A stretch of DNA of 64,000 nucleotides from assembly GCA_963698855.1 (NCBI GenBank), contig CAVOSK010000006.1:80661-144660 (forward strand), in the 5' to 3' direction. The position numbers and the translations under genes were made by a program. Source of the stretch: an uncultured beta proteobacterium. Its GTDB lineage: Bacteria > Pseudomonadota > Gammaproteobacteria > Burkholderiales > Thiobacillaceae. This document shows, one piece after another, positions 1 to 61,450 of the stretch; positions within the stretch are counted from its first letter, which is position 1; every line of letters starts with the position of its first letter. The notes under the pieces are model-generated. The model did not search any database. It was not told where the DNA came from and saw only the letters and a program-made list of their open reading frames with translations.

Positions 1-30
1 TGGAGTAGGTCGCCTGCCGCTTACCTAACC

Positions 31-58
31 ACCGTTCGCCCTGAGCTTGTCGAAGGGC
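31..58 (+). repeat. REP-like palindrome ACCGTTCGCCCTGAGCTTGTCGAAGGGC (CGTC/CGTT class)
   Basis: Recognisable short REP-type motif; inverted copy at 1549-1576. Confidence 0.75.
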
Positions 59-395
59 CTGATCGTTTTAGTTGAAATGTTCGCCAGACCACTGACCGTT
101 GGCCGGGGGTAGCCCGGCAGCAAGTTACTTTCTTTTGTCTCGCCAAAAGAAAGTAACCCAAGAAAAGGCGACCCCGCTCATCCCCGAAATCCCGAAAATC
201 GAACCTGCCGGGTGGGCGGCAAAGAACTCGCCCCGCTTTTGCTGTTTTGAATTGGTTTTTTGTGAGCGGGGCTCAAACACCTTTGCCGCTGATCCACCCG
301 ACAGGCTCAATTTTCGGCGGGACTGAGAGGGGATTAAAGTCAAAACCAGGGCAGTAATAACTGGAGGATTTGTGTACCTGTGTTACGACACCCCA

Positions 396-445: not shown

Positions 446-1132
446 TTATTTTTCAGGCAATGGCTTCATCGGAAGCGGTGCCTTGAAACTATTTAACTTC
501 CAAGTTGCGCACCATTCATTTGCCAAAGACTCCCGCAGGATGGTTTTGTATTCGGGTTGGGTAAGGCTGCTGTTGATTTGCTGGACGTCTGCCACTGAAA
601 CATAACCCTTCACGCGTGCAGCTCGCTGGATGTCTTCTTCGCGCCCATTGTTGACAATCAGGTTAATTGCCTTGAACTCGGCAGGAAGCTGCAATAAGGG
701 AATGCGCTGCCATGCTTTACCGTCGTATTTGAAGATGACATAAGGTGGGTTCGGCCGTCCCCACTTGTTGTAGGCAAGACATAAATTCGGCTCAGCTACG
801 ATGTAGGGCGTGCCGTTCAACACATTCAGGGCCAGCAGATTAAGGTTGGCGCGTCCGACGTCTTCGCTGTATTCGCTCTTGAAGGCGAGGGTCTTGTTTG
901 AATGGGGTAGGGAGAATGAAATGGTGTGCTCCCTGATCGGCGGTGACTGCCCGATTTCATGCCGCCCGCCATGACTTTGTGACCGCTCCACAATGATCTT
1001 GTTGCCATCGTGCAGCAGCACCTCTTCCTTCCAGCTCGTCTTCCCACCCATCGCGCACGCGCTCATGCCGGCCCCCAGGATGATCAGGGAAATGCCCAGC
1101 AGCCAATTCGTCATTTGAGTTTTATTCTTCAC
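446..1132 (-). CDS. Uncharacterised probable lipoprotein (WKEEVLLHDG family)
   Basis: Clean ORF with GTG start and GGAGG RBS, hydrophobic signal followed by MSAC lipobox-like motif, lower GC than its neighbours. Confidence 0.75.
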   Translation of the reverse strand: MKNKTQMTNWLLGISLIILGAGMSACAMGGKTSWKEEVLLHDGNKIIVERSQSHGGRHEIGQSPPIREHTISFSLPHSNKTLAFKSEYSEDVGRANLNLLALNVLNGTPYIVAEPNLCLAYNKWGRPNPPYVIFKYDGKAWQRIPLLQLPAEFKAINLIVNNGREEDIQRAARVKGYVSVADVQQINSSLTQPEYKTILRESLANEWCATWKLNSFKAPLPMKPLPEK

Positions 1133-1164
1133 GCCTCCAACCTCCATTCAAAACAACAGTCCGC

Positions 1165-1212
1165 GTAGGGCGGACGAGCACCCTGAAGGGCGTAAATTGC
1201 GCGTTATCCGCC
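1165..1212 (+). repeat. GTAG-type REP
   Basis: GTAGGGCGGA...TATCCGCC hairpin. Confidence 0.75.
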
Positions 1213-1576
1213 GGATCTTGATGTAACACAAGCATGCAAACCATCCAGCCCACCGCCCTGGTTTTGACTTTAATCCCCTCTCAGTCCCGCCGAAAATTGG
1301 GCCTGCCGGGTGGATCAGCGGCAAAGGTGTTTGAGCCCCGCTCACAAAAAACCAATTCAAAACAGCAAAAGCGGGGCGAGTTCTTTGCCGCCCACCCGGC
1401 AGGCTCGGTTTTCGGGGTTTCGGGGATGAGCGGGGTCGCCTTTTCTTGGGTTACTTTCTTTTGGCGAGACAAAAGAAAGTAACTAGCTGCCGGGCTACCC
1501 CCGGCCAACGGTCAGCAGTCTGGCGAACACTTCAACTAAAACAACCAGGCCCTTCGACAGGCTCAGGGCGAACGGT
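1165..1576 (+). repeat. Right arm of the ~400-bp inverted repeat
   Basis: Inverted copy of 31-428; contains the perfect 14-bp stem GTTACTTTCTTTTG-gcgaga-CAAAAGAAAGTAAC. Confidence 0.92.
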
Positions 1577-1594
1577 GTGTGGTATGCCATTCAC

Positions 1595-2729: not shown

Positions 2730-3735
<1,006 letters not shown>

Positions 3736-60658: not shown

Positions 60659-61450
60659 TTACTGGGCGGGTGCGGCCGGTGCTGCTGTGGGTGCCGGCAT
60701 GAAGGCAGCCGGGTTGAACATCTGCAGCAATACGTTCGGGTCGAACGGGTTCGGGTAGGCGGCAGGTGCGCCCGCAGCCGGAGCGGCAACCGGAGCAGCC
60801 ATTGCGCCATAGGTGGCCGGATTCAACCAGGTGCCCCAGGTGCCATAGGTGGCGGGATTCATCGAGGCGCCCATCCAGCTGGTGTACAGAGCGGGGTTCA
60901 GGGGCTGCATCGACAACTGCATCAGACGCGGGTCCATTGGAGCCATCATCCACTTCATGTACATCGCGGGATTCAGGGTCTGCATGGCCATGTTGAGCGT
61001 TTGCGGATCCAGCGGCGACATCATCCAGCGCATGTATTTGCCGGGATCGAGCATCGGGGCCATCATCGCAGTGTAGAAGTTGGGATCCATCGAAGCGGCC
61101 ATCCACTTCATGTACATGTCGGGGTCGGCAAACTGCATGTAGTTGGCCAGCGAGCGCGGATCCATCATCGAACCCATCATCTTGTACCAGTTGCCTGGCT
61201 CCATCATGTTGATGCCCATCTGCGAGTAGAAGCTGGGCTCGGTCACGGCGTTGAACCAGGGCACGAACACCTTGGGGTCACGGTAGGCCGACGCATTGCG
61301 GGTAAAGTCGGTCATGCGCTCCAGCCACTGGGCACTGGTTTGCGGCGTGGCGGGGGCTGCGGCAGGGGCTGCAGCGGGTGCGGTACCATTGGCGAAAGCA
61401 GCGGAAACGGAAACCATTCCAAGGGCGAGAACAAGGGATTTCATTTTCAT
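60659..61450 (-). CDS. Secreted Met-rich repeat protein of unknown function
   Basis: GAAGGAG RBS, Sec signal ending AFA, 12 tandem 12-13-aa [DNE]P repeats, Ala/Pro tails, own terminator. Confidence 0.88.
   Translation of the reverse strand: MKMKSLVLALGMVSVSAAFANGTAPAAAPAAAPATPQTSAQWLERMTDFTRNASAYRDPKVFVPWFNAVTEPSFYSQMGINMMEPGNWYKMMGSMMDPRSLANYMQFADPDMYMKWMAASMDPNFYTAMMAPMLDPGKYMRWMMSPLDPQTLNMAMQTLNPAMYMKWMMAPMDPRLMQLSMQPLNPALYTSWMGASMNPATYGTWGTWLNPATYGAMAAPVAAPAAGAPAAYPNPFDPNVLLQMFNPAAFMPAPTAAPAAPAQ

Follow-up and report, generated by a model that had tools for sequence, protein, structure and literature searches.

Recognition of a folded DNA strand is a feature of integron attC sites and of HUH/Y1 transposase ends. 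Integron cassettes lie in direct arrays beside intI/attI, and attC sites share the consensus frame RYYYAAC...GTTRRRY. In the REP, BIME, and REPIN systems, the RAYT acts strand specifically on single-stranded hairpins. ERIC, Correia, and BOX elements, which are MITE-like repeats known from enterobacteria, Neisseria, and pneumococci, measure 100 to 150 nt and form one hairpin from their two ends. The passages of one source that treat ERIC, Correia, and BOX describe them as noncoding, multicopy, palindromic, and intergenic repeats that form hairpins when transcribed and affect mRNA processing in an orientation-dependent manner, and those passages give no strand test of G·U against A·C (PMC10969869). 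Finally, mobile insertion cassettes (MICs) and mosaics of Tn3-derived inverted-repeat miniature elements (TIMEs) are described in two sources as inverted terminal repeats around passenger genes, with no internal transposase (PMC4133298, PMC5444012).

Here, we analyze a 64,000-nt stretch of DNA (the window) from an uncultured betaproteobacterium. A preliminary description had read positions 1256 to 1510 as an element whose fold is under selection on one strand, either as a noncoding RNA or as a single-stranded DNA transposition substrate. We find that these 255 bases are the core of a modular repeat of about 265 nt, which we call the arm, and that arms occur as inverted pairs around low-GC accessory genes. 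We suggest that the family represents an RNA (or single-stranded DNA) device, not described before, that is tied to gene acquisition.

RESULTS

An inverted pair of arms encloses a single gene

The window contains an inverted repeat of 326 nt, the two arms of which are 96% complementary, and the flagged bases are the core portion of the right arm. The arms are separated by 896 nt that hold a single open reading frame (ORF), referred to below as the cargo. The arm-cargo-arm unit is bounded by the 3' ends of two genes, one encoding a DinG-like helicase (ending at about window position 8) and the other bcp. Its features, in window coordinates, are as follows.

30 to 355, minus strand: left arm, the right-arm unit reversed, with 13 positions that differ
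446 to 1147, minus strand: cargo gene of 233 amino acids, with a signal peptide, a lipobox-like ...GAGMSAC, and no Pfam match
1165 to 1212, no strand assigned: REP-C-like hairpin in the interval between the cargo and the right arm, with a counterpart at 397 to 425 between the cargo and the left arm
1205 to 1251, plus strand: inner linker of the right arm, with weaker family conservation; its left-arm mirror is 356 to 402
1252 to 1577, plus strand: right arm, made of the core (1252 to 1516) followed by an outer linker and a REP-like end
1275 to 1435, plus strand: long composite hairpin domain of the right arm, an outer CCCC/GGGG helix plus the long, middle, and apical helices
1292 to 1313 with 1392 to 1413, plus strand: long stem
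1318 to 1326 with 1383 to 1391, plus strand: middle helix, GCGGCAAAG with CTTTGCCGC
1335 to 1341 with 1371 to 1377, plus strand: apical helix, GCCCCGC with GCGGGGC
about 1343 to 1369, plus strand: variable A-rich loop of the long hairpin domain
1450 to 1463 with 1470 to 1483, plus strand: perfect 14-bp hairpin with a 6-nt loop, GTTACTTTCTTTTG with CAAAAGAAAGTAAC
1489 to 1494 with 1500 to 1505, plus strand: small G+C hairpin, GCCGGG with CCCGGC
1548 to 1577, plus strand: outer REP-like motif REP-A, with its inverted partner at 30 to 59

Every stem named in the preliminary description was recovered in the right arm. The description had also counted 12 differences between the arms, 11 of them transitions. 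The excess of transitions stands, but position 1254 had been missed, which raises the count to 13 differences (12 transitions and 1 transversion), 6 of which fall within 1256 to 1510. As had been claimed, the four differences in the long stem, at pairs 1297/1408, 1300/1405, 1301/1404, and 1306/1399, exchange Watson-Crick and G·T pairs on the outward-reading strand, and all four would be A·C mismatches on the opposite strand. By chance, all four differences would favor the same strand about 1 time in 8, so the two copies alone are weak evidence. Moreover, when the single sequence from the window was compared to shuffled sequences, both strands folded far better than the shuffles and nearly to the same extent (z of -7.2 outward and -6.9 inward). 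The window pair is also the most alike of 13 pairs compared, with cores 97% identical versus 72 to 89% in the other 12.

Irregularities were seen elsewhere in the window. The bcp ORF (1563 to 2051) has an apparent frameshift near its 3' end, either an assembly indel or a real lesion: its open frame gives 166 amino acids compared to about 155 in most relatives, and the conserved C terminus (…GKLVKSWRGLKAPGHAGEVLGFVQTL) is found in another frame at 1595 to 1729. A thioredoxin-reductase-like ORF (2740 to 3699) has a translation that is garbled in the middle, which suggests two compensating frameshifts at about 3000 to 3170. Positions 60855 to 61123 hold a set of four direct repeats (about 41 nt each, at a spacing of 75 to 78 nt), probably in a repeat-containing coding region.

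The arm family appears restricted to one genus

The genome from which the window comes (3.0 Mb in 7 contigs) has four long arm copies, as well as separate copies of two submodules, namely, arm positions 178 to 260 and the 27-nt REP-like end. REP-A also stands alone at 19 places in that genome. When 36 additional genomes from the genus were searched, 34 had arm matches, mostly several per genome. By contrast, 200 genomes from elsewhere in the order gave a single match to the long-stem core, which was weak and lay in a sister genus of the same family. A 23-nt arm motif was found in more than 151 metagenome stretches and had no matches among viral contigs. The collection totals about 130 diverged arm copies. 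Thus, the arm family appears restricted to one betaproteobacterial genus, probably Thiobacillus. The small REP-A repeat ranges further. Copies of 26 to 27 nt, 96 to 100% identical, were seen in loci titled Gallionella, Nitrosomonadales, and Sulfuritalea, indicating a small repeat common to several families, and contigs from RNA libraries contain REP-A halves joined with 20 to 30 nt between them at other loci.

Selection keeps the fold on the outward-reading strand

To the extent that selection acts on a fold, it should be seen across copies, and the preliminary description had named covariation and strand bias in a larger alignment as the tests of its reading. We aligned 61 arm cores from genome loci over 265 nt in the inner-to-outer sense. 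The RNAalifold model had 66 pairs, and compensatory changes were present at 22. One U·G-rich inner helix of that model (columns 79 to 83 with 127 to 131) contained 0 compensatory pairs versus 3 for the alternative GCCCCGC/GCGGGGC helix and was rejected in favor of the latter. The mended model has 67 pairs, 25 of which show compensatory changes, and 98.1% of cells pair across the 61 arms. Shuffled controls gave 13.8 ± 1.7 compensatory pairs, with none of 500 shuffles reaching 25 or the observed level of pairing, and controls in which the 3' partners were slid gave 3 to 9 compensatory pairs and 37 to 55% pairing. In the long stem, 15 of 23 pairs had compensatory changes, as did 4 of 12 aligned pairs in the 14-bp hairpin. 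The pairs of the small G+C hairpin are almost invariant and therefore neutral, neither for nor against pairing. Overall, the arm fold consists of a long, irregular hairpin (about 45 pairs, with a tip that is A rich and variable), a 12- to 14-bp hairpin, and the small G+C hairpin, and its invariant unpaired motifs include CTGGTTTTGAC, GGATCAGCGG, and GGGGTCGCC.

The fold is strongly asymmetric between strands. The consensus energy from RNAalifold was -87 kcal/mol for the outward strand versus -40 kcal/mol for its reverse complement. Across all cells of the 67 pairs, G·U occurred 270 times and A·C 17 times, where the arms were gathered by similarity to the window arm, many are orthologous, and cells count sequences, not events. 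When only pairs with a Watson-Crick consensus were considered, the cells were 178 G·U versus 17 A·C, and pairs with at least three such cells numbered 16 for G·U and 0 for A·C. Some G·U states are frequent: UG is present at one pair in 24 of 61 arms, and G·U is present at another in 59 of 61. Helices of RNA typically show such frequent G·U states. The count was repeated on 68 distinct arms from metagenomes. This second set, which does not overlap the first 61 and has a median identity of 91% to the nearest first-set arm, gave 312 G·U versus 29 A·C cells and 18 versus 0 pairs.

Mutation bias does not account for the asymmetry. In unpaired columns, changes of the G·U-making kind (C to T and A to G) outnumbered those of the A·C-making kind by 298 to 202, or 1.5:1, and a bias linked to replication cancels because arms occur in both chromosomal orientations. 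Moreover, transversions occupied 88 cells in paired columns and 555 in unpaired columns. The family alignment, the second arm set, and the mutation-bias control all support the central inference of the preliminary description, namely, that a fold of one strand is under selection. We conclude that every copy, even an old and diverged one at a fixed site, is under purifying selection for the fold and that this selection concerns the outward strand only.

No Rfam family matches the fold. An Rfam 15 scan of positions 1 to 2100 with E values up to 10 returned noise only (best hits of 12 to 21 bits against cutoffs of 52 to 117, with E values of at least 0.8), and Acido-Lenti-1 and Flavo-1, which the preliminary description had proposed to include in such a scan, were absent from the matches.

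Arms pair head to head around a short center or one gene

At the genome loci, arms form 21 pairs, always a minus-strand arm followed by a plus-strand arm with the inner ends facing, and all 37 adjacent arm pairs in metagenomes are likewise head to head. Single arms also occur at 31 genome loci, some of them truncated by contig ends. Seven of the 21 genome pairs enclose 64 to 102 nt, and the other 14 enclose 347 to 1,187 nt of 41 to 53% G+C. Among 34 distinct metagenome pairs, 11 enclose 79 to 126 nt and 23 enclose 387 to 2,000 nt. Thus, arm pairs bound either about 64 to 126 nt or one low-GC accessory gene. Empty pairs combine two arm subtypes and have in common a conserved asymmetric center. 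Conservation continues past the core, inward for about 45 nt, often reaching a REP-C-like hairpin (a module found at the inner side of many other arms as well), and outward into one of two REP-like ends, such that the cargo lies within several nested layers of inverted repeats. A single arm was also considered as a small MITE with short terminal repeats of its own, but the mean z was 0.03, z exceeded 2 in only 2 of 57 arms, and the idea was rejected.

Genes outside the arms have a preferred direction. Among 109 nonindependent cases, the gene at the outer end of the arm points toward it in 81 and away from it in 21, with 7 unclear. Because flanking genes are mostly aimed at the arm, read-through from core genes carries the nonfavored strand, which argues against the arm as a 3' untranslated region (UTR) of core genes. 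Outward transcripts leaving the cargo would have the favored strand and would be antisense to the flanking genes. In single-arm loci, a hand count found the cargo directed toward the arm in 10 and away in 6, and thus the arm is not simply a 3' UTR of cargo genes either.

Cargo genes are diverse, and related cargos occupy orthologous sites

The inner segment of the window locus has 53% G+C compared to 62 to 63% for the genome contigs. We scanned 53 cargo proteins with Pfam, comprising 29 of the 34 genome-locus ORFs and 24 from metagenome pairs. Seven exceeded the cutoff (DUF5640, DUF2971, DnaJ, SHOCT, RelA_SpoT, HSDR_N, and a zinc ribbon), and none of the 53 matched a transposase, integrase, or recombinase family. 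Indeed, none of the 21 genome and 34 metagenome pairs examined had a transposase or an interior larger than 2 kb. PADLOC matched 3 of 52 cargo proteins, one of them strongly as PDC-S33, a RelA/SpoT protein. That cargo (L246, 1073 to 2110) matches the candidate defense protein over its full length with an E value of 1e-125 and has a RelA/SpoT domain.

The 53 proteins fall into 48 clusters, and all three multimember clusters (8 proteins) are found at orthologous sites with homologous flanks (8 locus pairs compared). Within these clusters, cargo proteins are 46 to 56% identical, while arms and flanks are about 79 to 85% identical in DNA. Comparison of locus L033 with L065, L247, and L259 at one orthologous site points to a lipoprotein cargo that may be diverging fast or whose allele may have been replaced.

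Relatives of the window cargo were found in 241 stretches from many phyla. Travel of the cargo together with its arms was considered and rejected: the 76 relative loci that were kept contained no arm, and 3 contained the REP-A motif only. The closest relative is 87% identical in DNA over 619 nt in a different context, and the similarity stops 85 nt before the stop codon of the window ORF. That relative (L124, 2500 to 4100) is flanked by an RTX-repeat ORF and a lipase-like ORF. Speculatively, the window cargo may derive from an immunity-type lipoprotein.

The same sites vary in content across species

We compared the dinG-bcp site, downstream of bcp, in 40 further genomes of the genus. The two genes overlap with no spacer in 4 genomes, and some genomes have short spacers bearing REP-like motifs. 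A 170-nt palindrome (REP-A, linker, and small hairpin) is present in 3 genomes, a palindrome centered on the 14-bp hairpin is present in 1, and empty arm pairs are present in 4, including L043. Where arm pairs hold cargo, the cargos differ, being 233 amino acids (the window), 359 amino acids, another 233 amino acids, and a remnant. Other genomes have unrelated larger inserts or changed gene order. Arms at this site also fall into different subfamilies. Four loci (L085, L087, L092, and L099) form a graded series of ever smaller palindromes. Since the hairpin modules are their own reverse complements, two arms also offer direct repeats, and deletions between such modules of the two arms may have produced the smaller palindromes.

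At the tldD/pmbA site, 4 species have single arms that all belong to the same subfamily, but the neighboring cargo differs in each of them, and the variable DNA begins immediately at the stop codon. Selection on the arm thus probably acts in place, as is supported by the single tldD/pmbA subfamily, by related cargos at orthologous sites only, and by the deficit of transversions in paired columns.

Signals for transcription and candidate partner enzymes

No sigma-70-like promoter was found in positions 1 to 2100, and no conserved promoter was visible by eye in the inner linker. A terminator scan returned 9 terminator-like sites, all of which were either pieces of arm stems or located in or beside the cargo gene. 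The arm hairpins have no clear U-tract and therefore are not classical terminators. Four RNA libraries from three studies yielded contigs that contain arm-like sequence and bcp, but not the cargo; such contigs give no strand, ends, or level, may reflect DNA carryover, and have a depth that mixes copies and organisms.

The source genome (93% complete) had no match to TnpB (PF07282), the IS110 transposase (PF01548), or a reverse transcriptase. It has two Y1/RAYT genes, neither of which has an arm module within 1.5 kb. A RAYT was considered as the partner enzyme and rejected, as its GTAG-type REPs differ from the arm modules. We conclude that the GTAG REP/RAYT system is separate from the arm family. 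One RAYT-like Y1 gene, of 159 amino acids (G000:C7:458110; L077, 1405 to 1884), lies amid many GTAG-type REPs.

DISCUSSION

How a fold on one strand serves a pair of arms may be explained in several ways, and we favor a cis-acting RNA over single-stranded DNA. Specifically, the arm may work as RNA in cis on transcripts that leave the insert, a tentative reading to which we assign a probability of roughly 0.45. Transcripts would start in the AT-richer foreign insert, run outward, and meet the arm in its folding sense. The fold would then have them stopped, processed, or degraded before they turn antisense to the flanking core genes, which are mostly aimed at the arm. The asymmetry by itself does not dictate RNA, because G·T is the best-tolerated mismatch in a DNA hairpin and single-stranded DNA is compatible with the same counts. 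The arm might instead be a folded single-stranded DNA end or recombination site, and the pair a nonautonomous mobile element or cassette dock whose enzyme is encoded elsewhere. The strand specificity of the fold fits such a site, as does the head-to-head order, which puts the 3' end of the folding strand at each outer boundary. The dinG-bcp site, moreover, varies in presence and form, from REP only to cargo-bearing pairs, with arms from different subfamilies, and the cargo is as diverse as that of cassettes (48 clusters from 53 proteins, with a Pfam family in 7 of 53). Several observations, however, speak against it. Transposases, integrases, and recombinases are absent from the 53 cargo proteins, the source genome (93% complete) is without TnpB, IS110 transposase, and reverse transcriptase, and the REPs around its two Y1/RAYT genes are of a different, GTAG type. 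No direct repeat that would mark a target-site duplication is visible at the outer ends of the window locus, where the true ends are masked by nested, inverted REP-like layers. Single arms (57 examined) have no short terminal repeats of their own, related cargos sit at orthologous sites only, and viral contigs had no match. Finally, stems are intact in arms that have diverged by 25 to 30%, and constraint in place fits this better than does a transposon that bursts and decays. We therefore regard the single-stranded DNA explanation as possible but on the improbable side. Alternatively, and somewhat more doubtfully, the host lineage might keep several arm pairs at fixed chromosomal sites as docks dedicated to single foreign genes, with the cargo swapped over time. 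Each arm would then quarantine the insert, either by insulating it as RNA in cis or by serving as a recombination site formed by a folded single strand. If so, the family would be a cassette system that lacks an integron-type integrase and whose boundary element is a structured sequence of 265 nt.

Two further explanations appear less likely. Perhaps the arm is a gene for a structured RNA that acts in trans, as a small RNA, an RNP component, or a protein sponge, and merely sits beside insertion hot spots. A complex fold conserved over 265 nt with invariant unpaired motifs would be in keeping with such a gene, several copies are present per genome, and the variable A-rich apical loop might bind proteins such as Hfq. 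The unit, however, is not bounded by a promoter or terminator, its orientation is tied to the cargo and not to neighboring genes, it has no Rfam relative, and the family is confined to one genus; we consider a trans-acting RNA quite unlikely. The arm might even have no function of its own if template switching within quasi-palindromes or gene conversion between copies maintained the palindromes and the apparent covariation were a by-product. Indeed, the locus consists of nested palindromes, the dinG-bcp series resembles deletions between modules, and the window arms are 97% alike in the core, which suggests recent conversion or duplication. Removal of mismatches, however, is blind to their kind and cannot yield an excess of G·U of at least 10-fold that tracks the orientation of the arm, and the bias in unpaired columns is 1.5:1. 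We give this explanation hardly any credence.

Each of the leading interpretations would have its own significance. If the arm acts as RNA, the family would be a clear example of bacterial repeats that are selected for a large fold on one strand and that bound genes acquired horizontally, and it would provide a testable handle on how genomes tolerate transcription from foreign DNA. If the arm acts as single-stranded DNA, the family would mark a cassette-type gene-capture system without a known enzyme. In either case, the number of diverged copies, the abundant covariation, and the defined geometry make the arms ready for a covariance model, stranded RNA-seq, and reporters.

A full-text literature search (listings, abstracts, and some passages) found no such repeat in this genus, and the arms share traits with several systems described elsewhere. 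Like ERIC, Correia, and BOX, arms are noncoding, multicopy, palindromic, intergenic, and hairpin forming. Unlike those elements, each 265-nt arm forms three hairpin domains by itself, and a facing pair of arms can hold a gene between them. Arm pairs resemble MICs and TIMEs in having inverted ends around a passenger gene with no transposase inside. The ends of MICs and TIMEs, however, are short IS or Tn3 repeats read as duplex DNA by a known transposase, whereas arm ends are about 300 nt long and evolve through compensatory substitutions on one strand, and we found no IS or transposase related to them. Furthermore, transposition of the kind that defines MICs is not seen, as related cargos are confined to orthologous sites. 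Terminal inverted repeats, the absence of transposase coding, and many copies are shared with MITEs, but a related autonomous IS, another MITE hallmark, was not found in the 21 and 34 pairs examined.

The systems that read folded strands are similar in some respects and different in others. Like REP, BIME, and REPIN elements, arms are intergenic mosaics of small palindromes, and inverted pairs make larger hairpins. Unlike in REP/REPIN-RAYT systems, the RAYT of the source genome is flanked by unrelated GTAG-type REPs, and the arm is 10 times the length of a REP. The closest parallel to attC is a strand-specific folded site beside a single, usually unannotatable low-GC gene, with very diverse cargo. 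Arms nevertheless depart from integron cassettes, as 37 of 37 adjacent pairs are inverted, there are no arrays, and at most one gene region lies inside. The arm is also 2 to 4 times the length of attC, and no RYYYAAC...GTTRRRY frame was seen in it by eye. In IS200/IS605 elements with a TnpB omega-RNA, TnpB or IscB is present and the RNA lies at the right end of the transposon only, whereas arms lie on both sides of the cargo, and the source genome (93% complete) had no PF07282 match. The IS110 bridge RNA differs as well, as the genome is without the IS110 (DEDD) recombinase, PF01548. Ultimately, the arms are a family of structured, MITE-like intergenic repeats that fail a defining feature of each system to which they were compared.
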